Source of the DNA: a bacterium
GTDB taxonomy: Bacteria; Omnitrophota; Gorgyraeia; Zapsychrales; Zapsychraceae
Length of the DNA: 64,000 nucleotides
Assembly (NCBI GenBank): GCA_030429765.1
Contig: JAUIER010000016.1
Coordinates: forward strand, 38,017 to 102,016
Direction: 5' to 3'
Shown here: positions 6,539 through 57,510 of the stretch, in pieces
Layout of the letters: each line of letters begins with the position of its first letter
Numbering within the stretch: position 1 is the first letter of the stretch
The notes under the pieces: generated by a model
The model's database searches: none
What the model was told of the DNA's origin: nothing
What the model saw: the letters and a program-made list of their open reading frames with translations, nothing else
Translations under genes and position numbers: made by a program

Positions 6539-6576
6539 CATATAGCTGTATAGACCAATTATCAGGAGACCAGACC

Positions 6577-42053: not shown

Positions 42054-43103
42054 ATGACTTCCCGGCCTTCCATCGCCAGATTACTGAATAATTGGTACCG
42101 AAAGAATTCCCGGGCCCTACCGTGGCGTGAAACCACGGATCCCTACAAGATCTGGATATCCGAGGTCATGCTCCAGCAAACCACCGTGGCGACGGTTATT
42201 CCATACTATCAGAAATGGACCAGCAAATATCCTACGGTCCATGCCGTCGCACAGGCGTCCGAACAGGAATTGCTCAAGATGTGGCAGGGGCTCGGATACT
42301 ATCAGCGTGCCAAGAATCTTCACAAAGCGTCTCGCATCATTTCCCAAGAACTCAACGGCAAACTGCCATCAACCCGGGAGGAGTTGAGTAAGCTTCCAGG
42401 CTTCGGGCCATATACCACGGGCGCGGTCCTGAGCATAGCCTTTGACAAAAGAGAGCCGATCGTCGATGCCAACGTTCGTCGTGTGGTGATGCGTTTACTC
42501 GCGATTGAAGGAGAGGCGACACCCAAGGTGGACAATCAGATTACCGAGTATCTCTGGGAAGTGATGCCGCAACGTAATTTGCGTACGTTTAATCAGGCCT
42601 TGATGGAGCTCGGCGCTTTGGTGTGCCGCAGCAAATCACCATTGTGTTTGCTGTGTCCGCTCAAAGACCATTGCGCGGCGTATCGCCAGGGCGTGCAGGA
42701 GATCATTCCGCCTCCCAAGCGGAAAGTCATAAAGGATCTCGATGTCGCGATCGCGGTCATAGAAGCTGATGGAAAGTATCTGATCCAAAAACGCGGTTCC
42801 AAGGGGCTGATGGCGGATCTGTGGGAATTTCCTGGCGGTAAGATTGAGTCCGGCGAAAGTCCGCGACAGGCCTTGAAGCGGGAGGTTCGCGAGGAGGTGG
42901 ATATTGAGATTGCAGAGATCCGCCACTTTATCGATCTCAAGCATTACTATACCCAGTTTAGAGTCCACCTGAAGGTATTCCTGTGCCGGCCTGAGAATCC
43001 GCCGGTGGAGACGGCGGATCGTCAATGGGTGTCCAGGGCTGATTTGTCCCGCTTTCCGATGCCTTCCGGAAGTGCCAAAATAGTTGACAAACTACAGCAA
43101 TGA
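42054..43103 (+). CDS. mutY: A/G-specific adenine DNA glycosylase
   Basis: LLNNWYRKNSRALPWR...YKIWISEVMLQQT is the HhH-GPD N-terminus. A 4Fe-4S cluster motif and a Nudix-like C-domain follow. Confidence 0.85.
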   Translation: MTSRPSIARLLNNWYRKNSRALPWRETTDPYKIWISEVMLQQTTVATVIPYYQKWTSKYPTVHAVAQASEQELLKMWQGLGYYQRAKNLHKASRIISQELNGKLPSTREELSKLPGFGPYTTGAVLSIAFDKREPIVDANVRRVVMRLLAIEGEATPKVDNQITEYLWEVMPQRNLRTFNQALMELGALVCRSKSPLCLLCPLKDHCAAYRQGVQEIIPPPKRKVIKDLDVAIAVIEADGKYLIQKRGSKGLMADLWEFPGGKIESGESPRQALKREVREEVDIEIAEIRHFIDLKHYYTQFRVHLKVFLCRPENPPVETADRQWVSRADLSRFPMPSGSAKIVDKLQQ

Positions 43104-43146
43104 TGATATCCTTACTAGCCTAATCAAGTTAGTAAGGATTAAAACA

Positions 43147-43569
43147 ATGCGTATTTCAGCCAAAATTGATTATGCCTGCCGGGCGCTTCTGGAGCTGTCC
43201 CTGCATTGGCCCAACAAGACACCGTTGCAGATCAGTGAGATCTCCCGGCGTCAAGACATTTCGATACAGTTCCTGACGCAGATCCTGATATCGCTCAAGC
43301 AGCTCGGTTATACGGAAAGTGTCCGCGGAAAACGCGGTGGATATCTGCTGTCGAGGTCGCCGCAAGATATCAAGCTTGATCAGGTGGTGGTGGATCTGGG
43401 CAGCGTCGGATACAGCGTGGCGGAGCGGACGTCGGACGAAAACAGTGTAATGGATCAGATCTGGGCCGAGGTGGACGAGGCCGTGCTCAAGGCGATGGCG
43501 AATATTACGTTTGAAGATATCGCCAACCGGCAGAAGTCCCAGGAAAATATAGTGATGTTCGACATCTAA
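43147..43569 (+). CDS. Rrf2-family transcriptional regulator (CymR/IscR-like)
   Basis: MRISAKIDYACRALLELSLHWPNKTPLQISEISRRQDISIQFLTQILISLKQLGYTESVRGKRGGYLL has an HTH. It sits in front of the cysteine/sulfate genes. Confidence 0.8.
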   Translation: MRISAKIDYACRALLELSLHWPNKTPLQISEISRRQDISIQFLTQILISLKQLGYTESVRGKRGGYLLSRSPQDIKLDQVVVDLGSVGYSVAERTSDENSVMDQIWAEVDEAVLKAMANITFEDIANRQKSQENIVMFDI

Positions 43570-43603
43570 TCGATGCACACGATACAAGCGGATTAACGGA
43601 TTT

Positions 43604-44590
43604 ATGGTCTTTGTCATTTTCTTACTGGCCGTGTTCTTTGCCACCAATATGGGAGGCGCCAGTTTTGCCGCCTCTTTTTCAGCGCCCTATGGCGGAAAAG
43701 TGATCGGACACGGACGGGCTGCGATTTTGTTTATTGTCTTTGTCCTGATAGGCGCTGTGCTATTCGGACAAAACGTGGCGGTCACGTTAGGCAATAACAT
43801 CGTGCCGGCGTCGGCGATGACAGGCAAGGCCATCGTTATTGTCTTTTTATCCGCGGGGCTCAGCATGTTTGTGGCCAATCGTGCCAACATCCCGCAGTCA
43901 ACCAGTCTGGTAACGGTCGCGGCGATTGCCGGAGTCGGATGCTACATCGGTGATGTCAATACACGTGAGATTTTACGTTTTGTCCCGTTCTGGATCTTAC
44001 TGCCACTGCTGAGTTATTTGATGACGTATATCTGCGTCGGACGGATCTATCCGCCCCGGGCGGGTAACTTTTGGATTTATCAGAAGTTAGTGAACCAGAA
44101 AAGCAAGCTCAAGGCGTTTGTTCTGATCGCCAGTTGTTACAACGCTTTCTCCGTCGGGACCAACAATGTCGCCAATGTGGTCGGGCCGATGATGGGATAT
44201 GGCCACACACCATCTGGACAATATGGTTTTGGAGGAGATGCCTCGGCTATACTGATGCCGGTTATGGCCGTTATTTACGGGCTTGGGGCGGTGCTGTTTA
44301 CCGGCCCAATCAAAACGGCCGGCAACAAAATCGTGCCGTTGGGATTGATGACGGCATCGGTTATTTCATTTATCAGCGGAACGCTCATGATCATTGCGTC
44401 GTGGTGGGGCGTTCCGCAATCATTTGTCATGCTCCAGATGGGCGCGCTATTTGCCGTGTCGAGTTTGAAGCACGGCACGGAGTACACGCTTAAAAATCCA
44501 TTGATTCAGCGCACGTTTTATACCTGGACTATTAATCCCGTGATCACATTGTTTATCAGTTACGGATTGTGTTTTTTAATTATGAGGTAA
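43604..44590 (+). CDS. cysP: PiT-family anion permease, probably the sulfate permease CysP
   Basis: NMGGASFAASF is typical of the PHO4/PiT family. Its position mirrors Bacillus subtilis cysP, a PiT-family sulfate permease, ahead of cysK-cysH-cysD-cysN. Confidence 0.6.
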   Translation: MVFVIFLLAVFFATNMGGASFAASFSAPYGGKVIGHGRAAILFIVFVLIGAVLFGQNVAVTLGNNIVPASAMTGKAIVIVFLSAGLSMFVANRANIPQSTSLVTVAAIAGVGCYIGDVNTREILRFVPFWILLPLLSYLMTYICVGRIYPPRAGNFWIYQKLVNQKSKLKAFVLIASCYNAFSVGTNNVANVVGPMMGYGHTPSGQYGFGGDASAILMPVMAVIYGLGAVLFTGPIKTAGNKIVPLGLMTASVISFISGTLMIIASWWGVPQSFVMLQMGALFAVSSLKHGTEYTLKNPLIQRTFYTWTINPVITLFISYGLCFLIMR

Positions 44591-44591
44591 T

Positions 44592-45524
44592 ATGTCAGCC
44601 AAGATCGTTGATACAGTGATAGATTTGATTGGAAATACCCCTTTGATTCGGTTAAACCGGATCCGGTTGGACGACCAGTCGGCGGAGATTCTCGGAAAAC
44701 TGGAATCCTTTAACCCGGGCGGCAGCGTGAAGGACCGGCCATGTCTGGAGATGATTGAAGCGGCGGAACGCGAAGGATTGATCAGTGAGGGAACCACGAT
44801 CATTGAGCCCACTACGGGCAACACCGGTATTGGCCTGGCCATGATTTGCGCGGTCAAAAAGTACAAATGTATTTTGACCATGCCCGAGGACTTGAGTCTG
44901 GAGAGGATCTATCTGTTGCGCTCCTACGGGGCCGAAGTGGTCTTGACCCCGGCCCGGGCGGGTGTACGCGGCTCCATCGAGCGGGCTGAGCAGTTGCACA
45001 AGAAGATCAAGAACAGCTTTATTCCGCTTCAGTTCAAAAGCCGTTCCAATCCCGAGGCCCACCGCAAAAGCACAGCCGTCGAAATTCTGGATGCCTGTGA
45101 TGGTCGGATAGACGCCTTTGTCGCCGGCGTGGGAACAGGCGGGACGATTACCGGAGTCGGAGAGATTCTTAAGGAACGGATCAGTCACGTGAAGGTGGTG
45201 GCTGTCGAGCCTGAGACCTCGGCGGTTTTATCCGGACAAAAGCCGGGGCAACATCGTATCCAAGGGATCGGCGCCGGTTTTGTTCCGGAGATCCTGAATC
45301 GATCTATTATAGATGAAATCATTCCCGTGTCGGATCAGGACGCGTTTGATATGACGCGTTTGCTGGGATCCCGGGAAGGGCTTTGCGTGGGCATATCGGC
45401 GGGGGCGAATGTGGTGGCTGCCCGTCAAGTGGCGCAGCAATTAGGGCCTGATAAACGGGTGGTCACGATTTTATGTGATACCGGCGAACGATATTTTTCA
45501 ACCGAACAGTTTTTTACCGCTTAG
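44592..45524 (+). CDS. cysK: Cysteine synthase A (O-acetylserine sulfhydrylase)
   Basis: PLIRLNRI, the PLP-lysine context SVKDRP, TGNTGIGLAM and GVGTGGTITG. Confidence 0.9.
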   Translation: MSAKIVDTVIDLIGNTPLIRLNRIRLDDQSAEILGKLESFNPGGSVKDRPCLEMIEAAEREGLISEGTTIIEPTTGNTGIGLAMICAVKKYKCILTMPEDLSLERIYLLRSYGAEVVLTPARAGVRGSIERAEQLHKKIKNSFIPLQFKSRSNPEAHRKSTAVEILDACDGRIDAFVAGVGTGGTITGVGEILKERISHVKVVAVEPETSAVLSGQKPGQHRIQGIGAGFVPEILNRSIIDEIIPVSDQDAFDMTRLLGSREGLCVGISAGANVVAARQVAQQLGPDKRVVTILCDTGERYFSTEQFFTA

Positions 45525-45536
45525 GAGAATTTTCTG

Positions 45537-46262
45537 ATGAAAGAAAAAATCAATGACTATATCCAGCAGACCGGCGGGTTTGAGGCCGAAGAGATCCTGA
45601 AATTTGCCTATTCAGAATTTGGCGATCGATTGTCCTTCGCGACAAGTCTCGGCGAGGAAGATCAGGTCTTGACCGATTTGATCGCCAAGGCTGAACCACG
45701 GATTCGGATATTCACCCTGGACACGGGGCGATTATTTCAGGAAAGTTATGATCTGCTCGCCAAGAATCAAAAACGCTATCCAATGGCGGTGGATGTTTAC
45801 TTTCCTAACGCGGCGAAGATAGAATCGATGGTCAAAGAACATGGTGTTAATTTGTTTTACGATAGCGTCGAGAATCGAAAGATGTGTTGCGGAGTTCGCA
45901 AGGTTGAGCCGTTGCAACGTGCGCTTTCGACGGTGGATGCGTGGATTACCGGCCTGCGGCGGTCTCAGTCAGTAACCAGGGCGAACATGAAGACGTTTGA
46001 GTGGGATGATGCCAATCAAAAGGTCAAGATCAATCCATTGGCCGATTGGTCATTGGACCGATTGCGGGAATACATTCAAACAAACAAGGTGGATGTGAGT
46101 CCGTTGCATGAAAAGGGATTTGTAAGTATTGGTTGCGCGCCGTGTACGCGTGCCATCAAGCCGGGGGAAGATATCCGTGCCGGACGGTGGTGGTGGGAAG
46201 CGCCGGAACAGAAAGAATGTGGTTTACACAACAATCCCAATCGTCCCCCGGCCAAGTCGTAA
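45537..46262 (+). CDS. cysH: Assimilatory adenylylsulfate (APS) reductase, thioredoxin-dependent
   Basis: The PAPS_reduct fold has a CysCys...CxxC iron-sulfur motif (MCCGVRK, GCAPCTR) and a terminal ECGLH. Confidence 0.8.
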   Translation: MKEKINDYIQQTGGFEAEEILKFAYSEFGDRLSFATSLGEEDQVLTDLIAKAEPRIRIFTLDTGRLFQESYDLLAKNQKRYPMAVDVYFPNAAKIESMVKEHGVNLFYDSVENRKMCCGVRKVEPLQRALSTVDAWITGLRRSQSVTRANMKTFEWDDANQKVKINPLADWSLDRLREYIQTNKVDVSPLHEKGFVSIGCAPCTRAIKPGEDIRAGRWWWEAPEQKECGLHNNPNRPPAKS

Positions 46263-46315
46263 TTTTCGAGCGTATAGGGAATCTATTCAAAGTTTAATTC
46301 ATACAGGAGCAAGAC

Positions 46316-47212
46316 ATGAGCAAGCAAACGATGACGAAACTAGATGAAATTGAGGCGCAAAGTATATTTATCTTTCGTGAAGCCTACCGCGAGTTCAAGA
46401 ATCTCGCGATGCTGTGGTCGATTGGAAAGGACAGTACCGTACTCTTGTGGTTGGCCCGTAAGGCCTTCTTCGGTCACGTGCCGTTTCCATTGGTTCATAT
46501 TGATACCAGTTACAAGATCCCGGCGATGATCGAGTATCGGGACAAGCTGGCCAAGGAGTGGAAGCTTAATATGGTCTATGGCCAGAACAAACAAGCCCTA
46601 AAGGACAAACAAACGTATCCCGATGGAGCGATTGATCGAATCTCCTGCTGCAAGGCCTTAAAATCAGAAGCGCTCAAGCATACCCTGGCCGGCTCATGGC
46701 CGCGATTTCGGTTGAATCATGAGATCGGTGAGTATGAGGTCGATACCAACACAGAGCCGTACACAGGTGTTATTGTCGGTGTTCGAGCGGATGAAGAAGG
46801 CAGTCGCTCCAAGGAACGGTATTTCTCGCCGCGGGATAGAAACAATGATTGGGACGTCGGTGATCAGCCGCCGGAGCTTTGGAATCAGTTCAAGACCGAT
46901 TTTGCGCCGGGAACTCACCTGCGGATTCATCCACTGCTGGACTGGACGGAGTTGAATATCTGGGAGTACATCGAACGTGAAAATATTCCGATTATTGATC
47001 TGTATTTTGATCAAGGCGAGGGGACGCGTTACCGGTCTCTTGGATGTATGCCGTGCACATTACCGGTTGAATCGACGGCCAAGAATGTACCGGAGATTGT
47101 CGAGGAGCTTCGATCCGGAAAATTTAAAAACATAGCCGAACGATCCGGTCGAGCTCAGGACAAAGAGGACGGCGGCGGTCTGGAAACACTGCGGGTTGAC
47201 GGATATATGTAG
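46316..47212 (+). CDS. cysD: Sulfate adenylyltransferase subunit 2
   Basis: The ATP-PPase-type protein has [16 protein letters not shown] and CysD-typical length and context. Confidence 0.85.
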
Positions 47213-47242
47213 GTACATCATAGGCGCTAATCAATCGTAGAT

Positions 47243-49069
47243 ATGAGAAACGAAAAGGATATAGAGATGAACGAAAAAGAACAAATGAATGTTGTGATCG
47301 TCGGTCATGTGGATCACGGAAAGAGCACGCTGATCGGACGTCTGCTCGCGGATACAGGTTCCCTGCCGGAAGGCAAACTGGATCAGGTCAAGGATATGTG
47401 CAAGCGCAATGCCAAACCATTTGAGTATGCGTTTTTGCTGGATGCCCTGAAGGACGAACAGGCGCAGGGGATCACCATTGATACGGCGCGAAGTTTTTTC
47501 AAATCCGAGAAACGGGATTACATCATTATCGATGCCCCGGGGCATATCGAGTTTCTAAAGAACATGGTCACCGGCGCGGCCCGGGCCGAGGCGGCGATGC
47601 TTGTCATCGATGCCAACGAAGGGATTCAGGAAAATTCTAAACGTCACGGTTACATTATGTCGTTTCTGGGTATCAAGAACGTGACGGTTTGTGTCAACAA
47701 GATGGACCTGGTGGACTATGATGAAAAGACCTTTAACGATATTCATCTTGAGTACACCAAATTCCTCAAGGAAATCAATCTGGTCCCGCAGCACTTTATT
47801 CCGATCAGTGCCCGTGAAGGAGACAATATCGTGCATCTATCGGAGAAGATGCCATGGTACAAGGGGTTATCCATTCTCGAGGCCTTTGATGACTTTAAGA
47901 AAAAAGCACCGAAGAGTGAATTGGATCTGCGCTTTCCGATCCAGGATATTTACAAGTTTACTGAACAGGGAGACGACCGACGAATCTTTGCCGGACGGAT
48001 CGAATCAGGTTCGGTTAAAGTCGGCGATGAAGTGGTGTTCTTGCCGTCGAATAAGCGGTCGCGGGTGAAAAGCATTGAAGGATTTAATCTACCGGAGCAG
48101 ACCGAGGCCTTTGTCGGTCAAAGCACCGGGATCACCCTTGAAACACAGATATATGTGAAGCCAGGAGATATTGTCAGTATCGCCAGTCAACGTCAACCGC
48201 ATGTGAGTTCCAAGCTCAAGGTCAATTTGTTCTGGATGGGCAAACAGCCGTTCATCAAGGGACGTAACTACAAGATTAAATTGGCCTCCCAAAAAGTTCC
48301 GGTAGTTTTGTCGCAGATCAATAGTGTGTTGGATGCGTCGGAGCTTTCATCCATGTCAAACAAGCCGCAGGTTGATCGGCATGACGTGGCCGAGTGTGTG
48401 CTGGAGACACTGAAGCCTTTGGCCTTCGATGAAATCTCCGCGATCTCCGAGACGGGTCGATTTGTGATCGTCGATAACTACGAGATTGCCGGTGGCGGTA
48501 TCATCCTTGCACCTGTCTTTGAAGAGGCCAGTGCCTTAAAAGAACATATTCATGCGCGGGAGCATAACTGGTTGCGTAGTGAGATAAGCAGCTCTCAGCG
48601 TGCGGAAAAGCAAGGTCATAAATCCGCCTTCGTGGTTCTGACCGGCTCAGTGGATTCGGGTAAAATTGATCTGGCCCGTGCGCTTGAGTCCCAATTGTTT
48701 AGTTCGGGGCAGCAGGTGTACTATATGGGATTGTCCAGTGATCTGATGGCGACACAGATCGGTACGGGTGACAGGACACTTAATCGTGTGCGGCATATTT
48801 ATCAGCTGGGAGAGATGGCGCATATGATGACCAATTCCGGGATGATTTTGTTGGCGACGGTATCAGATCTCGATGCCTACGAACTGGATATTCTCAAACA
48901 GCTTAATCGTCCCAACATGACCATTGTTGTAAATGTCGGTGAAAAAATGTTCTCGGATGAACGTATCGATCTTCAGGTTCAGGACCCGAAATCAGGCCCA
49001 GAGAGCGTTCAGGAGATAGTCAAATATCTTACAGACAGCCTGACGCCGGACCCGGAATTCTCGATTTGA
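47243..49069 (+). CDS. cysN: Sulfate adenylyltransferase subunit 1 fused to an APS-kinase-like domain with a degenerate P-loop
   Basis: The GTPase motifs are [16 protein letters not shown] and NKMD. The C-terminal CysC-like domain has [10 protein letters not shown] where GLSGSGKST is expected. Confidence 0.8.
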
Positions 49070-49134
49070 TCATCTGATTTCTTCGAATGTCGCTTGCCTA
49101 ATAAGTTGCAATAAAACGTATTTTCAAATACCAT

Positions 49135-49163
49135 TTGACATGAAATAGGACGGATGTTAATAT
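49135..49163 (+). promoter_or_regulatory. Near-consensus sigma70 promoter upstream of the Com-like mini-gene and the TonB-receptor operon
   Basis: TTGACA, a 17-nt spacer and TAATAT. A perfect 6-1-6 palindrome ATAACTAAGTTAT at 49175-49187 lies just downstream. Confidence 0.5.
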
Positions 49164-49211
49164 CCGGGTAGTCAATAACTAAGTTATATTGCGACGTATT
49201 TAGGTTGATCC

Positions 49212-49385
49212 ATGTCCAAGCAAGAAGAACGCTGCGATTGCGGCAAATTGCTGTTCAAGCTCACCCCGCGAGGGTTAGAATTTAAGTGTAACCGCTGCAA
49301 AGAGATCCATTTGGTTCCCTTGTATCGGATAGACACTGAATTTCGCAATATCTGTCCGGTTATTGACCAGACGCACAAAAAATAA
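49212..49385 (+). CDS. Com-family (phage Mu Com-like) zinc-finger small protein, 57 aa
   Basis: MSKQEERCDCGKLLFKLTPRGLEFKCNRCKEIHLV matches the Mu Com signature C-x-C-x-KLLFK...C-x-RCK. It is not in the supplied ORF track because it is shorter than 60 aa. Confidence 0.55.
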   Translation: MSKQEERCDCGKLLFKLTPRGLEFKCNRCKEIHLVPLYRIDTEFRNICPVIDQTHKK

Positions 49386-49449
49386 CCGCAGAGACTCGAG
49401 ATCACGAATCCTAAGTCCAAAACAAAGATGTCGAAAGAAAGGAAAGACT

Positions 49450-51747
49450 ATGTCATTTGGACCCAGGGAATTCGTCCCGCCACTCAAATCAACCAGCCAA
49501 ACACTTGTTAAATGCTTGTTTTGTGTCGCCGTTTTATTAGGTGTCACCTGTACCGCCCAATATGCCCAGGCCGAAATCTGGGATGTGGTCACCGTACTCG
49601 GTCAGCGCGAGAGCGAAGGGAATCTTCCCGGATCAGGCGGAAGTGTCAGCGCCGAGGAGATCCGTCAGCATAACTATGATGACGTCAACCGGGCGTTGCG
49701 AAAAATCCCCGGCGTTTATTTACGTGAAGAGGATGGTTTCGGACTTTTCCCTAATATATCGTTGAGAGGTGTGGATACCAATCGCAGCTCCAAGGTGACC
49801 ATTATGGAGGATGGAATTCCGTCCGCCCCAGCTCCATACTCGGCCCCGGAGGCGTACTACTCACCCACCACCGGACGGATGAGCAAAATTGAAATACTCA
49901 AAGGGTCCAGTCAGGTCAAATACGGACCGCATACCACCGGCGGCGTTGTTAATTATGTTTCCACGCCGATTCCTGATCAGCGTGAGTTTTATCTCAAAAC
50001 CATCGGGGGGAATCACGGCGAGTTACGGACGCATGGGTATTACGGTGACGTGATCGATACGGAGTTTGGTCGGTTTGGAATTCTGCTAGAAGAATACTTT
50101 CGCTCGAACAACGGATTTAAAGATTTGGATTCAACCGCTGAAAATGACGGAGATAGCACGGGATTTCAGAAATCCGAACCTATGCTCAAATTGTCGTGGG
50201 AATCTCCCGAGGAGGCCGAGACGTATCAGCGTCTCGAGGCCAAGTTTGGCTATAGCGATATCGACGCCGATGAGAGCTACTTGGGATTGACCGAGGCCGA
50301 TTTTGATGCCAATCCGTTCCGTCGATACGCGGCAACACGCTTTGACAACCTTCAAACGGAAAACGTCCGTACATCTTTGAACTACTTCCGTGAGATCGGA
50401 GAACAAATCAGCTTGAGCCTGACGGGGTATTACACCGAGTTTCACCGTGATTGGGCCAAGCTGCACAATATCGGGGGAGGATCCGAGTCTAATTTGTCCG
50501 AAGCCATTGCGGCCGGTGGGACATCACTTTCAATCCTAAAAGGTGAAGCGGCCGGCACCCTAAATGTCCGTCATAACAAGCGGGACTACGAGACCTATGG
50601 ATTTAAAACGGCGACCAACATTGATTTTCAGCTAGGTGAGACAGATCACGAACTGGAAATCGGATGGGGGATTCACTACGACTATATCCGACGAAAACAA
50701 AATACGGATATTTATACGCAGGACGCCAATGGAAATATCACGGGTGTCACGTCAACCGCACCCGGGACAGCGGGTAATCGCCGTCAGGACAGCGACAGTT
50801 TTTTTGCCTATGTCAAAGACAGCTTTGACGTCGGACCGTTTACGTTTACGCCGGGGTTCCGCTACGAAAAGGTTAATTACGAATTCATTGATTTTGATAC
50901 GTCCGGGGCGAATCCGGATATGATCACTCAACGGGCATCGTCGGATATTTCGGCCCATGCCGGCGGTTTGGGGGTAAACTATGAATTTGACGAACAAACA
51001 TCATTCTTCGGCGGAATTCACCAGGGCTATTCGGTTCCGGGACCGCGTGACAACGCGCGCAGCGGACTGACAGAGGAGACCAGTCTTACCAAAGAAGTCG
51101 GTGTACGCTACCGTTCGGGCAATCAGGCGTTTCAGACCGAGCTGTCGTATTTTCACACGAGCTTTGATGATCTGCTCGTCGTCGATAACATCGGCGGGGC
51201 GGGTACGGGCGACAGTGAGAATGTCGGAGAGGCCATCAGTCAGGGGATTGAGTTTAAGGCGCAATACGATGTCGGGATCGCCAAGCAAAAGGATTATAAG
51301 AATCCGTTCTATGTGGCCTTTACTTTCACCAACGCGGAATTGGACGGCGATTCAAATTCAACGGATGCCGAATCGATCTTTGCCGGCGGCAAGGATGGCA
51401 ACAAGATACCATATGTTCCCGAGTTTCAATTCAGTGTGGGGACCGGCATCGAAACGGATCGATGGGGCGTTTTTGTCGACGGAATATATGTGGATGAAAC
51501 ATTTTCAACCGCCAGTAATACTTCATCACAAATCCGGCCGGATGGAACGCCGGACGCGCGGTTTGGAAAGACCGATGATTATTTCATTATTGATCTGTCG
51601 GGATACTATAAGATTAACGAAAATACCAAGCTATTGGCCAGCATTCATAATCTGACGGACCGGGAATATGTTGTATCACGGCATCCGCATGGGCCACGGC
51701 CGGGAAAGCCGTTTACGGTGACAGGCGGTATTGAAGTTAAGTTCTAA
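49450..51747 (+). CDS. TonB-dependent outer-membrane receptor
   Basis: The signal peptide is LFCVAVLLGVTCTAQYAQA. The TonB box/plug is DVVTVLG. The barrel ends in a terminal Phe (GGIEVKF). The longer ORF from 49363 lacks an RBS. Confidence 0.85.
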   Translation: MSFGPREFVPPLKSTSQTLVKCLFCVAVLLGVTCTAQYAQAEIWDVVTVLGQRESEGNLPGSGGSVSAEEIRQHNYDDVNRALRKIPGVYLREEDGFGLFPNISLRGVDTNRSSKVTIMEDGIPSAPAPYSAPEAYYSPTTGRMSKIEILKGSSQVKYGPHTTGGVVNYVSTPIPDQREFYLKTIGGNHGELRTHGYYGDVIDTEFGRFGILLEEYFRSNNGFKDLDSTAENDGDSTGFQKSEPMLKLSWESPEEAETYQRLEAKFGYSDIDADESYLGLTEADFDANPFRRYAATRFDNLQTENVRTSLNYFREIGEQISLSLTGYYTEFHRDWAKLHNIGGGSESNLSEAIAAGGTSLSILKGEAAGTLNVRHNKRDYETYGFKTATNIDFQLGETDHELEIGWGIHYDYIRRKQNTDIYTQDANGNITGVTSTAPGTAGNRRQDSDSFFAYVKDSFDVGPFTFTPGFRYEKVNYEFIDFDTSGANPDMITQRASSDISAHAGGLGVNYEFDEQTSFFGGIHQGYSVPGPRDNARSGLTEETSLTKEVGVRYRSGNQAFQTELSYFHTSFDDLLVVDNIGGAGTGDSENVGEAISQGIEFKAQYDVGIAKQKDYKNPFYVAFTFTNAELDGDSNSTDAESIFAGGKDGNKIPYVPEFQFSVGTGIETDRWGVFVDGIYVDETFSTASNTSSQIRPDGTPDARFGKTDDYFIIDLSGYYKINENTKLLASIHNLTDREYVVSRHPHGPRPGKPFTVTGGIEVKF

Positions 51748-51760
51748 GGGGAAATTGTAG

Positions 51761-52441
51761 ATGTTGTGGGATCATAGTGTAATTGAATTATTCCAAAAGG
51801 CCGGGCTGACAAGGTGGCCGTTGTTTATCTGCTCGATTGTCGGTCTGGCCATCATTCTGGAACGGGGGTTTTACTTTTTCCGATTGCGTTTTAATTATGC
51901 CAAGTTCAGTCGGGATTTGTTTATTCTGCTGCGGGCGGATCAGCTGATGAAGGGTATCCACTTTTGTCAGGAAAATTCCTCCAATCCTGTGCCGTATATT
52001 GCGGGGACATATCTGCGCAATGTCAAAAACAAGAAACGTGACAGCATTTTGACACGGGAAGGTTCCAATATCATGGAGAAAGTCGAAGCGCGTCTGCGTG
52101 GGCTGGCGACGATTACGCATGTGGCCCCGTTACTGGGTTTGTTGGGGACGGTCGCCGGTCTGGTCGGGGCCTTTCACGAGATCGAATTAACCGCCGGACA
52201 GGTCCAGGCGCAGAATTTGGCCGGGGGGATTTGGGAAGCGCTATTGAGCACGGTCTTCGGATTGATCGTCGCCATTCCTTGTATGGTGGCGTATCATGGC
52301 TTCGAAAGTCAGGCGGACCGGATTGCCCGGCGGCTACAATCAGTGGTGACAGAGCTGGATGAATTCTACGGGAACAAATCTCATCATGAATTCCGTGATG
52401 AGTCCGTCGATGATAACGATCTCAAAAACACAACGGAATAG
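51761..52441 (+). CDS. exbB: MotA/TolQ/ExbB proton-channel protein
   Basis: A 3-TM protein with the TolQ/ExbB conserved C-terminal region, immediately ahead of exbD-tonB. Confidence 0.8.
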   Translation: MLWDHSVIELFQKAGLTRWPLFICSIVGLAIILERGFYFFRLRFNYAKFSRDLFILLRADQLMKGIHFCQENSSNPVPYIAGTYLRNVKNKKRDSILTREGSNIMEKVEARLRGLATITHVAPLLGLLGTVAGLVGAFHEIELTAGQVQAQNLAGGIWEALLSTVFGLIVAIPCMVAYHGFESQADRIARRLQSVVTELDEFYGNKSHHEFRDESVDDNDLKNTTE

Positions 52442-52443
52442 GT

Positions 52444-52842
52444 ATGCAATTAGTCCGGGCTAAAAAGCAAAAGTTGAGTATGGATCTGGCGCCATTGATT
52501 GATGTCGTATTTCAGCTGTTGGTATTTTTTATGCTGACGTCGACATTCGCGAATCCGGCGATCAAGATGGTGCTGCCCAAGGCCGTCTCGGCCGACCAAA
52601 ATGACCGGCAGCTGATTGTGGTCAGCGTCGATGAGGATCTCAAGGTTTATATTGATGATCAGCCGGTGGAACTGGATGCGTTTCAGTCCCGTTTGTCACA
52701 GGTCTTGAAAGACAAAGAGAAGAAGTCGATCCATATTCGCGGGCATAAGGACATGCCGTACGAACGCTTTGTCCGGCTGATGGATCTGTCGCGCCAGGCA
52801 GGCGCTACGCAGGTGAATATTTTGCATCAAAAGGGAGAATAG
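52444..52842 (+). CDS. exbD: ExbD/TolR biopolymer transport protein
   Basis: A single N-terminal TM, LAPLIDVVFQLLVFFM, and an ExbD fold. Confidence 0.8.
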   Translation: MQLVRAKKQKLSMDLAPLIDVVFQLLVFFMLTSTFANPAIKMVLPKAVSADQNDRQLIVVSVDEDLKVYIDDQPVELDAFQSRLSQVLKDKEKKSIHIRGHKDMPYERFVRLMDLSRQAGATQVNILHQKGE

Positions 52843-52845
52843 CTC

Positions 52846-53646
52846 GTGGCTGCCCGACAATCTTATGCGTCAACCAGATTGACCCCATACTTACTCGCGT
52901 CTTTGAGTATTCACTTGGCCGGGTTTGGGATCAGCGCGCTGAGGCCCACCTCACCGCAGTACAATGTGACACCGGCGCCCCCGCCGAGCATCGCGGTATC
53001 GCTGGTCGAAGAAGTGCCCGCGCCTGTCATTGAGCCGGTGGTGGAACCGATAGTCGAACCCGAGCCGGTGACGAAGGCAATTGAGGCCGTCGATGTCACC
53101 GAGGATGTGGTGGAGCCGATGGAATTATCACCCATGGCGATTGATCATCCACAGATTGATGCCCCTCAGGTCAAGGTCTTCAAGAAATTTATTCCCAAAC
53201 TCAAACCTAAACCCGAGGTCGTAAAGAAGAAGCGTCCGACACCGACCATCAAAAAGCCGCTTAAGACTCCCGTACCGGAGAAAAAGATTCAACCCAAAAA
53301 AAATATAACCCGGGTTCAGTCATCGGCACAGATGGCGGCAGCGGATTCCGAGAGCGGGGCCAAATCTGAACCCAAGCCGATTAAGCGGGTGAATCCGCGG
53401 CCCAAGTATCCAAAGCGGGCGATTCGACGGGGATGGGAAGGTACAGTGACCCTGCGGGTCCGTGTCAGCCGAGCCGGTGATCCGCTGGACATTCAGATTG
53501 AGGAGAGTTCCGGTCGGAAGATCCTCGACGACGCGGCGGTGTCGACCGTCAAACAATGGAAGTTTGAGCCGGCGAGGGCCGGACGCATGACATTTGAGAG
53601 TTGGGCGACGATTCCTGTTGAATTCAGGCTGACGGACGCCCGATAA
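52846..53646 (+). CDS. tonB: Energy transducer TonB
   Basis: An N-terminal TM and a Pro-rich spacer with (EPV)n and K/P repeats. The C-terminal TonB domain is RGWEGTVTLRVRVSRAGD...KFEPA. Confidence 0.85.
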   Translation: MAARQSYASTRLTPYLLASLSIHLAGFGISALRPTSPQYNVTPAPPPSIAVSLVEEVPAPVIEPVVEPIVEPEPVTKAIEAVDVTEDVVEPMELSPMAIDHPQIDAPQVKVFKKFIPKLKPKPEVVKKKRPTPTIKKPLKTPVPEKKIQPKKNITRVQSSAQMAAADSESGAKSEPKPIKRVNPRPKYPKRAIRRGWEGTVTLRVRVSRAGDPLDIQIEESSGRKILDDAAVSTVKQWKFEPARAGRMTFESWATIPVEFRLTDAR

Positions 53647-53669
53647 ACGATTAGTCAAAGGAGACCCAA

Positions 53670-54701
53670 GTGAAACATCTTATTATCACATGCTTGATTT
53701 TAGCGACATATACGTCGACAGCGGTAGCTGATTTGACCGTTTTTTCCGGTCGCAAGGAGCCATTAATAAAACCGGTGATCGAGGCCTTTACCGCAGAGAC
53801 GGGAATCGAGGTTCGGCTCAAAACAGGTAAGTCGACCGCTCTCGGGCAGCAGATTTTGCAGGAACAGCCGCGGCCAACGGCAGACATCTATATAGCCAAA
53901 GAGTCAGGGTCACTGGAATATCTGCGCGGAAAGGGCGCATTTGAAACATATGAATCCCGTGAGACCAAACGTATTCCCGAACGATTCAAAGCGCGAGATG
54001 GATCATGGATCGGCGTTTCGGGTCGATCGCGGGCGCTGATTTACAACAAGGATCTCATCGACGCGTCCGATCTGCCGCAATCAATTGAGGAGCTGTCGGA
54101 CCGGAAATATCGGGGTCAGATTGCAGCGGTCAATGCAGGCAATGAGTCGTTTATCGCATGGATCAGCGGATTGCGACTGCACATGGGCGACGAAGCTGTG
54201 GCTGCGTGGTTGAAGGCCATGAAGAAAAACAAAATCCAGCTGTTGTCATCCAGTCATACCGATATCCGAAAGGCGGTGGGACGGGCCGAATATCCGATGG
54301 GACTGATCAATCACTACTATTATCACCTGCAGAAGCGTGAGGCCGATGAGGAACTGACGAATGTGGGTGTGGTGTATCTTGATCAAAAGGATGACCAGCG
54401 CGGTGAGTTGGTGAATGTATCCGGTGCGGCGATTGTAAAGGGCACGGCCAATATGACGCAGGCACGGCAGTTCATAGATTTCCTGGCATCGCCCAAGGCG
54501 CAGGACTTGTTTGCCAATGCGAATTTTGAGTTTCCGCTGATCGCGGATGTCGAGGTCAATCCGGAAGTGGTGGCGGCGATGGGCTGTGAACCCGGTACGC
54601 CAGCGCTGGACTGTCTGCATGTGATGGATGTTCATCTGGATGAGTTTGGATCCCAGATGAAGACAACCCTGGAAATTCTCGACGAGGTGGACTGGTACTA
54701 A
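53670..54701 (+). CDS. Periplasmic Fe(3+)-binding protein of an ABC transporter (FbpA/AfuA-like)
   Basis: A signal peptide and a type-2 solute-binding protein pattern. It is followed by a two-domain permease and an ATPase. Confidence 0.7.
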   Translation: MKHLIITCLILATYTSTAVADLTVFSGRKEPLIKPVIEAFTAETGIEVRLKTGKSTALGQQILQEQPRPTADIYIAKESGSLEYLRGKGAFETYESRETKRIPERFKARDGSWIGVSGRSRALIYNKDLIDASDLPQSIEELSDRKYRGQIAAVNAGNESFIAWISGLRLHMGDEAVAAWLKAMKKNKIQLLSSSHTDIRKAVGRAEYPMGLINHYYYHLQKREADEELTNVGVVYLDQKDDQRGELVNVSGAAIVKGTANMTQARQFIDFLASPKAQDLFANANFEFPLIADVEVNPEVVAAMGCEPGTPALDCLHVMDVHLDEFGSQMKTTLEILDEVDWY

Positions 54702-54702
54702 T

Positions 54703-56295
54703 ATGCGGATGAGTTTGAGACGATTGCCGGCGGTATTAACAGCCCTACTGATGGTTGTACCTGTTGTCGCGACGCTGATTTATGCGGCGTCGGTTGATGC
54801 GTCTATCTGGATACGGCTGTGGGAAAACCGGATCCCGCGGCTGTTCTTTACCTCAATGCTGCTCGTCGCGGCCGTGACCGTTGGTTCGATTGTGCTGGGA
54901 ACGCTTTTGGCCTTTCTCGTCGAGCGGACAAATCTGCCGGGACGAAAGATATTTCGTCCGCTGCTGATCGCGCCCTTGGTGACACCGTGCTTTATCATCG
55001 CCATCACATACGTTAATTTTTTTGGCATCCGGGGTGTCGGTCAAAAGATGTTCGGAGCTATGGGGATCAATTGTAATTTACCGAATATCTACGGATTTTG
55101 GGGTGCGGTCGGGATCTTTGTTCTTGGGACGTTTCCCTACGTCTACACAATTGTACTGGCTTCTTTGAGCCGGCTGGATCCAAGCCTGTCCGAGGCGGCG
55201 CGCTGTTTGGGGGCGTCTCGACGGGAACGAATGTGGCGGGTGTCACTGCCGCTATTACTGCCGGCGATCAGCGCGGGATCGATTCTTGTGGCGTTGTATG
55301 TATTTTCAGATTTTGGCGTGGTGAGTATCCTTCGATACTCGACATTCGTGAATATGATCTATGAACAGATCAGCGGGCGGTATGATTTTGCCGTGGCCTC
55401 ATCGCTGAGTACCGTCCTCATGGGGATCACTTTTATATTGGTGTTCTTTCAGGACTTGCTGACCAAGAAACGGCAGTTCAGCAATACCAAAAATAAACGA
55501 TACAATCTACCACGCTTGGATCTCAAGTGGGCCCGTCTACCGGCGTTTGTATTTGTGTTCGCGGTTTTGGGGTTCGCCTTGATCCTTCCCGTTGGCGTAC
55601 TGCTGTACTGGTTTGTTCAGTCGTTGGGAGTGGATAGTGTCTGGGGTTCCAACGCGCGGGAATTGTTCCGTTCAGGATTCAATAGTCTTTTGATTTCATC
55701 GCTGGCCGCCACCGCCGCCGTGTTACTGGCCTTACCGCTGGCCTACTGGAATGTCAGGGATCGTAACAGCCGTTGGGGAAAGATCTGCGCGGGAGCATCC
55801 CAACTCGGAGTCGCGTTGCCCGGTGTCCTGATTGCCCTGGCGTTATCGCTGGTTTTGGGTCAATTTTTTCCGCGGCTCAATTTCAGTGTGACGGCCCTGT
55901 TTCTGGCCTTTGTGATTCACTTTTTTGCCAAGGCTTATCAGATGACACGCGCCGGATTGATTCAGCTGTCGCCGCGCGTTGAAGAAGGTGCCCGGATGCT
56001 GGGATGCAGTCCGGTGCAGACGTTTTGGCTGATCACCCGTCCATTGTTGACCCCGGCCTTAATGGTCGCCTGGATATTTGTCTTTTTAAGTTCGATGCGT
56101 GAGCTGGCGGCATCATTGTTATTGCGTCCCGCCGGATTTGATCCGCTCACGGTTAAGGTCTGGATCGCGGCCAGTGAGGGATTTTATGAACAAGCGGCTG
56201 CCCCGGCCCTGCTAATTGTGATATTATCATTACCGATGGTGATGATCATGGCACGGCATCAGGGTCAGTATCAATCGTCACTGGAGTCTACATAG
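54703..56295 (+). CDS. Iron(III) ABC transporter permease (fused two-domain, FbpB-like)
   Basis: Two ~6-TM halves each carry an EAA-like loop (SEAARCLGASR and EGARMLGCSP). Confidence 0.75.
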   Translation: MRMSLRRLPAVLTALLMVVPVVATLIYAASVDASIWIRLWENRIPRLFFTSMLLVAAVTVGSIVLGTLLAFLVERTNLPGRKIFRPLLIAPLVTPCFIIAITYVNFFGIRGVGQKMFGAMGINCNLPNIYGFWGAVGIFVLGTFPYVYTIVLASLSRLDPSLSEAARCLGASRRERMWRVSLPLLLPAISAGSILVALYVFSDFGVVSILRYSTFVNMIYEQISGRYDFAVASSLSTVLMGITFILVFFQDLLTKKRQFSNTKNKRYNLPRLDLKWARLPAFVFVFAVLGFALILPVGVLLYWFVQSLGVDSVWGSNARELFRSGFNSLLISSLAATAAVLLALPLAYWNVRDRNSRWGKICAGASQLGVALPGVLIALALSLVLGQFFPRLNFSVTALFLAFVIHFFAKAYQMTRAGLIQLSPRVEEGARMLGCSPVQTFWLITRPLLTPALMVAWIFVFLSSMRELAASLLLRPAGFDPLTVKVWIAASEGFYEQAAAPALLIVILSLPMVMIMARHQGQYQSSLEST

Positions 56296-56297
56296 CG

Positions 56298-57389
56298 ATG
56301 GTAACCACAATTCAATCAAAAAAGTCACAGACGGATGATCAATCACCGCGCGAGATTGTCCGTTTTGAGAAGATCCAGTACGCGTACCGGTCCGGTAAGA
56401 AACAATTTCAGCTCGGACCGATGACGCTGGGGCTGCAGTCGCATGAGTTGATGGCGATTTTGGGACCAAGTGGATCAGGGAAGACGACCTTTTTACGGTT
56501 GATTGCCGGATTGGCCATGCCGTCGACGGGGACAATTGAACTCGATGAACGTGTCGTGTTTGATCCCAGTACTCGGGTTAGAGCCGAGCACCGGAATGTC
56601 GGGATGATGTTTCAGGACCACGCGCTGTTCCCGCATATGACCGTTCGCAAGAATATAGTCTTCGGGATTCGACAGTGGCAAAAGGACGACCGCGAACGAA
56701 GGTTATATGAGCTTGAGGACATGTTGGGTCTGCGCGATTATCTCGACCGTTATCCGCATGAGTTGTCCGGTGGTCAGCAGCAACGTGTCGCTCTGGCGCG
56801 CACGCTCGCGCCGAAACCGAGTGTGGTGTTGCTCGATGAACCACTGAGCAGCATTGACGCTGATCTTCGGTCGAGTCTGGCCCAGGAGCTGCGTGATGTT
56901 CTCAAACAGGCCGGTACCACAGCCATTTGGGTTACACATGATCAAACCGAAGCGCTGGACCTGGCGGATCGCATCATCGTGTTGAATGAGGGCAAAGTGG
57001 AACAGGTGGATTCACCGTGGGAGCTGTACAATAATCCCAAGACACGTTTTGTGGCCTCGTTTATCGGGCATGCTGTCTTTTTGCCAGGCCGGCTTAAAGG
57101 TCAAACTATCCTGACCGAAGTCGGCACACTGAATTATCTGCCGTGTCTGCAGGACTTCGAGGACCTGGAGGTGATGATCCGGCCGGACGATGTCAAGGCT
57201 ACACCACATGACGCCGGAATCGGGACCATTTGCAAGCGTCAATTTTGGGGATCAATGCAGTTGTATACCATCAATCTGCCTTCCGGACAGCGGCTCTTGT
57301 CCACGCAACCGGCGCATATCAACTGGCCTTTAGGAACGCAAGTTCGTATCACACTTGATCTTAAGAGTATCGTTGCCTTTCCGACATAA
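56298..57389 (+). CDS. ABC transporter ATP-binding protein (FbpC-like) with a C-terminal TOBE domain
   Basis: The Walker A is GPSGSGKTT, the signature is LSGGQQQRVALAR and the Walker B is VLLDEP. Confidence 0.85.
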   Translation: MVTTIQSKKSQTDDQSPREIVRFEKIQYAYRSGKKQFQLGPMTLGLQSHELMAILGPSGSGKTTFLRLIAGLAMPSTGTIELDERVVFDPSTRVRAEHRNVGMMFQDHALFPHMTVRKNIVFGIRQWQKDDRERRLYELEDMLGLRDYLDRYPHELSGGQQQRVALARTLAPKPSVVLLDEPLSSIDADLRSSLAQELRDVLKQAGTTAIWVTHDQTEALDLADRIIVLNEGKVEQVDSPWELYNNPKTRFVASFIGHAVFLPGRLKGQTILTEVGTLNYLPCLQDFEDLEVMIRPDDVKATPHDAGIGTICKRQFWGSMQLYTINLPSGQRLLSTQPAHINWPLGTQVRITLDLKSIVAFPT

Positions 57390-57510
57390 TCTTTGTTTTT
57401 CCCGCCTGTCGATGTGGACAACTATTTGCCGTCCCTACGAAAATATGATAGTGTAATACCATTATTAGTACATATTTACTCTAAGTCTTACCCGAAATAC
57501 TACCGAATAC

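Follow-up and report, generated by a model that had tools for sequence, protein, structure and literature searches.

What does a gene of 57 codons, resembling com of bacteriophage Mu, do at the head of an outer-membrane uptake cluster in a member of the Omnitrophota? The question is raised by a 64,000-nucleotide (nt) stretch of DNA from the Zapsychraceae (GenBank assembly GCA_030429765.1, contig JAUIER010000016.1, positions 38,017 to 102,016 of the forward strand; hereafter the window), in which this gene, here termed the mini-gene, precedes genes for a TonB-dependent receptor, ExbB, ExbD, TonB and an ABC transporter. A first-pass annotation, made from the sequence alone, had suggested a Com-type post-transcriptional switch controlling an uptake operon. 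Such an RNA switch, in which binding of the encoded mini-protein to a conserved RNA core would modulate the neighbouring helix, is in our judgement the best-supported, although unproven, reading of the locus, with a probability of roughly 0.45. The observations that carry it are the reality of the gene, its homology to Com, an RNA core and hairpin conserved downstream of it, its promoter and operators, and its recurrent linkage to fur and iron acquisition.

Until now Com has been regarded as a curiosity of phage biology, and only one target of it is known. It is a zinc finger of 62 amino acids (aa) and of the CCCC type, which binds a hairpin beside the mom translation-inhibition structure and exposes the start signals, and its finger alone is enough for sequence- and structure-specific RNA binding (PMC6483171). 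Loci and proteins compared with the window are designated below by L and P numbers, and coordinates of the features are collected in Table 1.

The mini-gene and its protein

The open reading frame (ORF) proposed by the first-pass annotation was recovered with an ATG start, and its translation (MSKQEERCDCGKLLFKLTPRGLEFKCNRCKEIHLVPLYRIDTEFRNICPVIDQTHKK) is the one originally quoted. A search of 5.8 billion proteins returned nine homologues at 60-89% identity, one of them from a Candidatus Omnitrophica metagenome-assembled genome, where it is named 'hypothetical protein'. Residues R7, C8, D9, C10, G11, L13, L14, F15, G21, E23, F24, K25, C26, N27, R28, C29, K30, H33, C48 and P49 are invariant among these close homologues, and the invariant residues of the family hold across phyla. 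Over 47 codons of 13 orthologous Omnitrophota loci, synonymous sites are saturated (synonymous divergence, pS, 0.64-0.94), non-synonymous divergence (pN) is 0.05-0.23 and the median pN/pS is 0.18. The mini-gene, whose conservation in relatives had been left as a matter to be checked, is a real gene under purifying selection.

In an AlphaFold2 model based on an alignment of 42 sequences there are four short strands and a single helix, the mean local confidence score (pLDDT) is ~80 in the ribbon and 71 overall, and the predicted fold is zinc-ribbon-like. A sequence profile search of the Protein Data Bank (PDB) gave nothing significant; the best profile and Foldseek matches are ribosomal or polymerase zinc ribbons at E>=0.2. 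Zinc would presumably be held by the four cysteines of the ribbon.

Relative to L006, the window has lost 1 nt in an A-run near the end of the ORF. As a result of this deletion the window ORF stops at 49385 and the ancestral tail, TAETRDHES*, is shifted to the -1 frame, the tail region remaining identical to that of L006 at 28/29 positions. The stop of the ancestral tail is also the 3-nt spacer ahead of the hairpin described below. Ribosomal slippage, an error of assembly and a recent mutation are all candidate explanations of the deletion.

Relationship to phage Mu Com

The first-pass annotation had held that the mini-protein reproduces the Com zinc-ribbon signature. Distant homology is upheld by comparison of the family alignment with an alignment of 18 Com proteins (hhalign probability 97.8%, E 8.8e-13, 35 columns), but the Pfam model Zn_ribbon_Com (PF10122) does not match the window protein, and the hhalign alignment shows a one-residue deletion in the first knuckle (CxC as against CxxC in Com). 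A search of 38,880 PHROGs with the window protein gave two matches, both Com families (13819, E 0.0066; 6417, E 0.017), and BLASTP against Mu Com gave 13/30 identities (43%), the query being 100% identical to AF083977 35768-35953, annotated 'translational activator'. Sub-threshold matches to Zn_ribbon_Com occur in 8 of 42 family members (best E 0.003), making it the most frequent family among them, and a PAS-fused relative in L052 reaches 22.8 bits against a cut-off of 22.9.

The first cysteine pair is C-D-C in the window protein and CxC in all 42 relatives inspected; thus the four invariant cysteines align with the Com ligands without the CxxC...CxxC spacing of Com. Of the four residues put forward as the RNA-binding surface of Com (PMC6483171), three have the conserved R7, K12 and R28 as their counterparts. 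Judged by sequence comparison, the window protein is a homologue of the Com ribbon that lies outside the Com family by curated thresholds.

From ten close sequences we built a hidden Markov model, and its search of 1.84 billion representatives returned 719 cluster representatives at E<=1e-3. Members inspected are 45-127 aa long and take the form RCxCGxLLxK...GxExKCxRCKRxHxIP. Tandem double-ribbon proteins occur too (P0014, P0015, P0019, P0021, P0031), and three loci of Patescibacteria/Saccharibacteria (L049 5932-6816, L052 300-1115, L058 5974-6459) encode fusions in which a Com-like CxC ribbon at the N-terminus precedes one or two PAS domains, which suggests that the ribbon serves as a regulatory output domain. 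The patescibacterial relatives (KLLFKG type, some PAS-fused) have no iron context. Three variants (L084, minus strand, ~1560-1830; L118, ~950-1210; P0090) have lost the ribbon cysteines (RSDGGKLLF...KCPRTKQ) and gained a C-x11-CxxC set further on, with the same operator and RNA core still flanking them; they may have altered or no metal dependence. In the literature searched we found no description of the family, nor of a Com-like protein in iron regulation, and the family appears to be undescribed. Its ribbon is of the Com type, the zinc knuckle is altered, and the genomic and physiological surroundings are new.

RNA core and hairpin downstream of the mini-gene

As well as in the window, an RNA core of consensus YGAGATCNNGAATCC stands at the 3' end of the mini-gene, or beyond it, in L006, L017, L025, L076 and L078. 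Translated, it encodes [TA]RDxES(NAQ), with codons free of synonymous change apart from an unconstrained central triplet; because the synonymous sites of the ORF itself are saturated, the constraint appears to act on the nucleotides themselves. In 638 kb scanned with a covariance model that uses sequence only (R1), every core found lay beside a mini-gene, and one instance, upstream of a Nitrospiraceae mini-gene (L038), was new. An Rfam scan of the element matched no family. A strict-pattern scan of metagenomes gave 74 core matches, mostly histidine-kinase (H-box) coding sequence or chance, among which three were recognised as genuine: L123, which is the L017 contig with its mini-ORF, and L084 and L118, which adjoin the mini-like ORFs with displaced cysteines.

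A stem starts exactly 3 nt past the core, with G(C/U)CCA, and its partner arm follows 5-47 nt downstream. Loops of the 3' copies hold a conserved purine-rich motif, AGAAAGGAG, which in the window and L017 is the Shine-Dalgarno (SD) sequence of the next gene, whose start codon stands at the foot of the 3' arm. The first-pass annotation had recommended looking between mini-gene and receptor for a Com-target-like hairpin; the hairpin predicted here encloses SD and AUG, but in the window sequence taken alone it is not significant (z is -0.35 for 91 nt and -2.36 for 141 nt). Its 7-bp stem length is reached in 0.6% of shuffles, and in 7/10 instances stem length is reached by <=4.4% of shuffles. In a loop-trimmed alignment of the ten instances, 90% of cells are paired and 4/7 pairs are compensatory, a score reached by 0/500 shuffles, with slid controls pairing at 20-49%; the covariation count is biased upward, since the alignment arms were chosen by complementarity. 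Placement of the core and the SD/AUG hairpin where a Com target would be expected is supported by these analyses.

In L076/77, L038 and L118 the stem takes the form of a short-loop terminator with a U-run. Beside these mini-genes stand units resembling small RNAs (sRNAs) or attenuators (L076 1-160, L077 130-330, L038 5690-5780, L118 1215-1290), which consist of a hairpin, the conserved core CGAGATCNNRAATCC and an intrinsic terminator, in that order. Those in L077 and L118 have their own promoter-like site and a TAAGT-N9-ACGTA operator in front, and an Rfam scan of the L076 and L077 units matched no family. In Nitrospirota, a different but analogous conserved helix of ten pairs encloses the SD and AUG of the porin-like gene that comes after the mini-gene. 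Its 5' arm, GAGGACCCCGAG, is followed by an invariant GUCCC; one pair is compensatory, several changes are of the G-U type, and single-sequence z values are -4.8, -5.6, -2.7 and -2.7 in four loci and -0.6 and -1.4 in L032 and L037.

Likenesses of the core to the Com SELEX motif GAG(N)2CC, the tRNA T-loop and the 16S 3' end, drawn by eye, were all too weak and were not used. A 27-codon ORF at 49428-49511 (MSKERKDYVIWTQGIRPATQINQPNTC) begins within the hairpin loop of the window and overlaps the receptor start in another frame, probably without meaning. In L017 (1025-1045), a start-stop pair (ATG TAG) lies in the hairpin loop between the SD and the start of a cupredoxin gene, abutting the real ATG.

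Promoter and operators

The near-consensus promoter that had been proposed ahead of the mini-gene was found at its reported place, with 10/12 matches. While one such site per 900-nt region is not above chance (1.8 expected), TTGACA-17-TGnTAnnAT precedes the mini-gene as a conserved element in 11 loci of Omnitrophota, and for this reason we regard the promoter as real; the exceptions are L008 and L022, in which the mini-gene overlaps the CysNC stop. On the forward strand between 42 and 58.5 kb, only two promoters combine 10/12 matches with TG, namely that of the mini-gene and that of the upstream cys operon.

The palindrome noted by the first-pass annotation between promoter and gene (ATAACTAAGTTAT) is present and unique in the window, but it is lineage-specific, with L006, the closest relative, as the only other carrier, and chance would account for its count (with <=2 mismatches allowed, 1.27 are expected). 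It overlaps the left half-site of operator B, introduced next, and was rejected as the operator because it is neither above chance nor broadly conserved.

Alignment of the promoters brought out TAMGT-N9-ACKTA, an element of 19 bp that resembles a palindrome and in many cases extends to AAATAAGT-N9-ACGTATTT. The window holds two matches (0.16 expected), both at the mini-gene promoter (operators A and B). Apart from a single site in L061, the element is confined among L001-L070 to mini-gene promoters, where there are either one or two copies, pairs being spaced by 69-78 bp; it was also seen by eye in L076/77 and L118. A G/T variant switches sides between sites and site A lies outside the transcript, which argues for a DNA operator read by a dimeric regulator.

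A canonical Fur box is absent from the window promoter, the best match to GATAATGATAATCATTATC being 11/19. Fur-box-like sites of 15/19 stand at the mini-gene promoters of L017, L025 (two sites), L032, L034 and L039, and that of L078 carries a Fur-box-like palindrome, ATGAAAATGAATTTCAT.

Genomic context in related lineages

In Omnitrophota relatives whose contigs reach upstream, the mini-gene follows the sulfate-assimilation operon, with CysNC or CysK directly before it. The gene downstream varies: SurE in L001, L005, L015, L020, L021 and L023, ExbB-ExbD(-TonB) in L006, L008/L022 and L024, and a binding protein with permease in L011. Conservation upstream of TonB receptors, which had been suggested as a check, thus holds for the mini-gene but not for the receptor as its constant neighbour.

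Outside this syntenic group the neighbours are of another kind. The fur gene lies immediately upstream of the mini-gene in seven related loci (L017, L025, L048, L050, L055, L056, L078) and <=4 kb away in two more, and in the window the uptake cluster lies directly downstream. The order is fur-fur-mini-cupredoxin-FTR1 in L017 (cupredoxin-FTR1 also follows in L076), fur-mini-receptor-ExbBD-TonB in L025 and fur-mini in Elusimicrobia (L048, L050, L055, L056); in L048 and L050 the fur stop and the start of the mini-gene overlap. Among Nitrospirota, fur precedes genes for a substrate-binding protein (SBP), permease and ATPase, after which the mini-gene comes, in L034 and L051 (also L039 and L041), and in seven Nitrospirota loci the mini-gene is followed by a porin-like gene of ~470 aa. 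Other arrangements are mini-ExbB-ExbD-SBP-permease-ATPase-receptor (L040), mini-ECF sigma-FecR-N (L036), the mini-gene upstream of IucA/IucC-FhuF (L026) and, among proteins returned by the profile search, mini-cupredoxin for P0011 and fur-mini for P0018. What recurs as a functional association of the mini-gene across Omnitrophota, Nitrospirota and Elusimicrobia is its link to fur and to iron acquisition.

In the four Elusimicrobia loci, a conserved secreted protein of ~400 aa with the motif DKRGE..GPI.QGLY.KPVWR is encoded after fur-mini; its L056 copy (~6200-7400) has no Pfam domain. The protein could be an unrecognised outer-membrane uptake component.

Proposed mechanism

Under a Com-type RNA switch, the mini-gene would be transcribed from its own strong promoter, gated by the two flanking operators. 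Iron limitation is the likely signal in this organism, because related lineages have Fur boxes at the same place. The transcript would run on into the genes for the TonB receptor, ExbB-ExbD-TonB and the ABC transporter, and the mini-protein would bind the core just 3' of its own coding region. Binding would then modulate the hairpin around the receptor SD and start, and so set translation of the uptake genes; where the core abuts an intrinsic terminator (L076/77, L038), binding would set read-through instead.

A wider version of this reading is somewhat less probable. It is possible that the mini-gene stands for an unrecognised, widespread family of chromosomal Com-like RNA-binding zinc ribbons, with at least 719 cluster representatives, the tandem and PAS-fused forms included. 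Those of the Omnitrophota, Nitrospirota and Elusimicrobia would be paired with a conserved cis-RNA module, in which the core adjoins a hairpin that forms a terminator or surrounds a ribosome-binding site, and protein and RNA together would act after transcription as an iron-starvation switch for outer-membrane uptake genes.

If true, poorly studied phyla would hold post-transcriptional regulators of a new bacterial class, in the form of a large chromosomal sister family of Com linked to Fur and to the uptake of iron, and the Com/mom logic would serve cellular metal homeostasis in a role that RyhB-type sRNAs fill elsewhere. Hundreds of 'hypothetical' mini-genes, often missed by gene callers, would gain a name. 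The system would offer a small protein-RNA pair (57 aa and ~70 nt) suited to direct study in vitro, and TAMGT-N9-ACKTA would be a newly exposed iron-type operator in Omnitrophota, a phylum with almost no experimental genetics.

Several observations weigh against an RNA switch at this locus. On the protein side, Pfam and NCBIfam scans of the window protein gave no match even at E<=10, Foldseek of the predicted model against the PDB gave no significant match, the overall pLDDT is moderate, and metal binding is an assumption because the first knuckle is CxC. On the RNA side, the window hairpin is not significant by itself at 91 nt, the L006 and L025 stems are weak, and in L025, L078 and L084 the loop has the SD-like AGAAAGGAG with no downstream gene start clearly inside it; the known sample of the element is also small, given that three of 74 pattern matches were recognised as genuine. 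On the side of context, in six Omnitrophota loci the mini-gene is retained together with its promoter where neither a downstream uptake gene nor the core is present, the window has neither a fur gene within its 64 kb nor a Fur box at the promoter, and the fur/mini overlap of Elusimicrobia fits a Fur partner equally well.

Alternative explanations

Of the alternatives, the one that survives best, unlikely as we consider it, is that the Cys4 (+Cys48) protein binds iron or zinc and, instead of binding nucleic acid, senses metal for Fur or the uptake machinery or serves either of them as chaperone or modulator. This would account for the four invariant cysteines and the conserved C48-P49 of the subfamily, for the tight fur linkage including the overlaps in L048 and L050, for the gene being kept stand-alone where uptake genes do not follow, and for the displaced-cysteine variants (L084, L118, P0090). 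However, the homology is to an RNA-binding ribbon and the basic residues are conserved, PAS fusions place the ribbon as an output domain, a conserved RNA element accompanies the gene, and the Pfam scan gave no Fer2_BFD, rubredoxin or HemP signature.

Considerably less probable is a DNA-binding autoregulator, by which the mini-protein would read the paired TAMGT-N9-ACKTA operators and repress or activate its own promoter. Com relatives bear the NCBI label 'DNA-binding transcriptional regulator', the operators stand at mini-gene promoters and ahead of the adjoining sRNA-like units in L076/77 and L118, and no other candidate regulator is evident in the window. Yet promoters in L017, L025, L078 and Nitrospirota carry Fur-type boxes though the protein is conserved, so that the operator follows the iron regulator of the lineage and not the mini-protein; moreover, Com is documented as an RNA binder (PMC6483171), and a monomeric ribbon of 57 aa is an unlikely reader of a 19-bp palindrome.

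We give similarly little credence to a cis-acting leader ORF, whose translation would open the structure and couple receptor translation while the peptide itself is functionless. The ancestral ORF ends exactly in the 3-nt spacer before the hairpin, ORF ends differ in position relative to the RNA element, and starts overlap upstream stops in L008/L022 and Elusimicrobia, all of which such a leader would explain; against it, strong purifying selection acts across phyla on the peptide, all of its putative zinc ligands included, the mini-gene persists without a downstream partner, and the window ORF stops 30 nt ahead of the hairpin.

The two remaining possibilities are effectively refuted. That the mini-gene is an accessory of the sulfate-assimilation operon ending 142 nt upstream, as its position directly after CysNC or CysK in window-related Omnitrophota might suggest, is very improbable, since the link is absent from the non-syntenic loci (L017, L025, L076, L078, Nitrospirota, Elusimicrobia), which marks cys adjacency as lineage synteny, and since the mini-gene has its own conserved promoter and operators, unlike that of the cys promoter. 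A remnant com gene of a Mu-like prophage, for which the resemblance to Com speaks, is ruled out for practical purposes by the chromosomal position orthologous across many genomes, by housekeeping and uptake neighbours with no mom or phage genes nearby, by a tblastn search of 50,697 phage records that gave no match, and by the presence of only five weak relatives in 2.9 million viral contigs.

Comparison with known systems

Both Mu Com and the mini-protein are ~60 aa long, carry a four-cysteine ribbon at the N-terminus and end in a variable tail, and they have in common the motifs R-C...C-x-KLLFK and E-[FI]-[KR]-C-x-R-C-K. Both are encoded by the first gene of their own operon, and in both an RNA element lies at or after the 3' end of that gene, beside a hairpin enclosing the start of the next (PMC6483171). 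The mini-protein differs in falling below Pfam/NCBIfam thresholds, in a first knuckle (CxC) one residue shorter, and in the extra helix and conserved Cys-Pro of its subfamily, and its RNA binding is only predicted. The mini-gene, for its part, is chromosomal and is not found in a Mu-like prophage upstream of or overlapping mom; its promoter is under an operator or Fur box, and it precedes iron-uptake components, whereas com precedes the gene for a DNA-modification enzyme.

Three other groups of small proteins invite comparison. HemP/HmuP are small proteins encoded upstream of TonB-dependent haem receptor genes, and they resemble the mini-protein in that a small gene heads a Fur-controlled TonB-receptor operon and is a proposed regulator of the downstream receptor; however, there is no sequence relation (no Pfam hemP match in the mini-protein), and HemP has no cysteine ribbon. 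FbpA/B/C of Bacillus subtilis are Fur-regulated basic proteins that act with the sRNA FsrA. Like them the mini-protein is small and basic, would be induced on Fur derepression and has a proposed action at the RNA level, and in L076/77, L038 and L118 its gene adjoins a putative sRNA-like unit (core and terminator), but Fbp proteins are not zinc ribbons and we know of no homology between them and the mini-protein. Bfd, the bacterioferritin-associated ferredoxin with CxC...CxxC [2Fe-2S] ligands, is similar in size, iron context and cysteine pattern. The mini-protein has no Fer2_BFD match, however, and is predicted to be a beta-ribbon (four strands and a helix), whereas Bfd is helical; its cysteine pairs are 15 residues apart, and those of Bfd much farther.

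Genes surrounding the mini-gene in the window

The spacing of ~65 nt given by the first-pass annotation between mini-gene and receptor is 64 nt, measured to the receptor ATG. Its account of the downstream cluster was confirmed by Pfam for receptor, ExbB, ExbD, TonB and ABC transporter, but the 'ferric' substrate is putative, because all NCBIfam matches of the transporter are far below cut-offs (the nearest being of the Fe3+/2-aminoethylphosphonate type). The receptor is 64% identical to the one that follows fur-[Fur boxes]-mini-gene in L025, and homologues of the ABC transporter come after fur in Nitrospirota L034 and L051. Since no credible forward-strand promoter or terminator lies within 49385-57389, co-transcription from the mini-gene promoter is likely.

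Table 1. Features of the mini-gene locus, in window coordinates.
Feature	Coordinates	Strand	Description or evidence
Sulfate-assimilation operon	43084..49069	+	Rrf2, CysP-type permease, CysK, CysH, CysD, CysNC; neighbouring unit, outside the system
Operator A	49102..49120	.	TAAGTTGCAATAAAACGTA (TAMGT-N9-ACKTA), just upstream of -35 hexamer; pattern scan and promoter alignment
Promoter	49135..49163	+	sigma-70-type, TTGACA-17-TAATAT, TG extended -10 at 49155-49156; conserved
Palindrome of first-pass annotation	49175..49187	.	ATAACT-A-AGTTAT; common only to window and L006
Operator B	49180..49198	.	TAAGTTATATTGCGACGTA, between -10 hexamer and start codon; pattern scan and promoter alignment
Mini-gene	49212..49385	+	57-aa basic protein, predicted zinc ribbon; putative ligands C8, C10, C26, C29; conserved C48-P49
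A-run deletion and ancestral tail	49377..49414	+	A6 run 49377-49382 with 1-nt deletion relative to L006; ancestral tail ends at TAA 49412-49414; pairwise alignment, three-frame translation
RNA core	49395..49411	+	CTCGAGATCACGAATCC; 15/40 columns invariant among 8 instances
Hairpin	49415..49462	+	GTCCAAA 49415-49421, TTTGGAC 49456-49462, extended by ACA/TGT; loop holds SD AGGAAAG (49440-49446) and receptor ATG (49450); folding, covariation
TonB-dependent receptor	49450..51747	+	Plug and beta-barrel; Pfam
exbB, exbD, tonB	51761..53646	+	51761-52441, 52444-52842, 52846-53646; Pfam
ABC transporter	53670..57389	+	Periplasmic binding protein, fused two-domain permease, ATPase with TOBE; Fe3+/2-AEP-type (2-aminoethylphosphonate), substrate putative; Pfam/NCBIfam

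The cys operon has a promoter of its own at 43084-43112 (TTGACA-17-TATCCT with TG, 10/12 matches), followed at 43109-43140 by an inverted repeat with 10-bp arms, ATCCTTACTA-N11-TAGTAAGGAT, which is unlike the mini-gene operators and is probably an Rrf2/CymR-like operator. The ATG at 43148, directly after the repeat, is likely the true Rrf2 start. At the far end of the operon, the APS-kinase part of the CysN-CysC fusion (47243-49069) matches only positions 2-82 of 152 of its Pfam model, at 28.7 bits; this C-terminal part may be a degenerate or regulatory kinase domain.

Downstream, a response-regulator/HD gene that follows surE in L001 and L005 is absent from the window. Compared with L001, L005, L008, L011 and L025, the segment from mini-gene to surE (window 49386-57510) is a variable cassette, which among relatives is empty or holds ExbBD-TonB, SBP-permease or the full receptor-ExbBD-TonB-ABC set.

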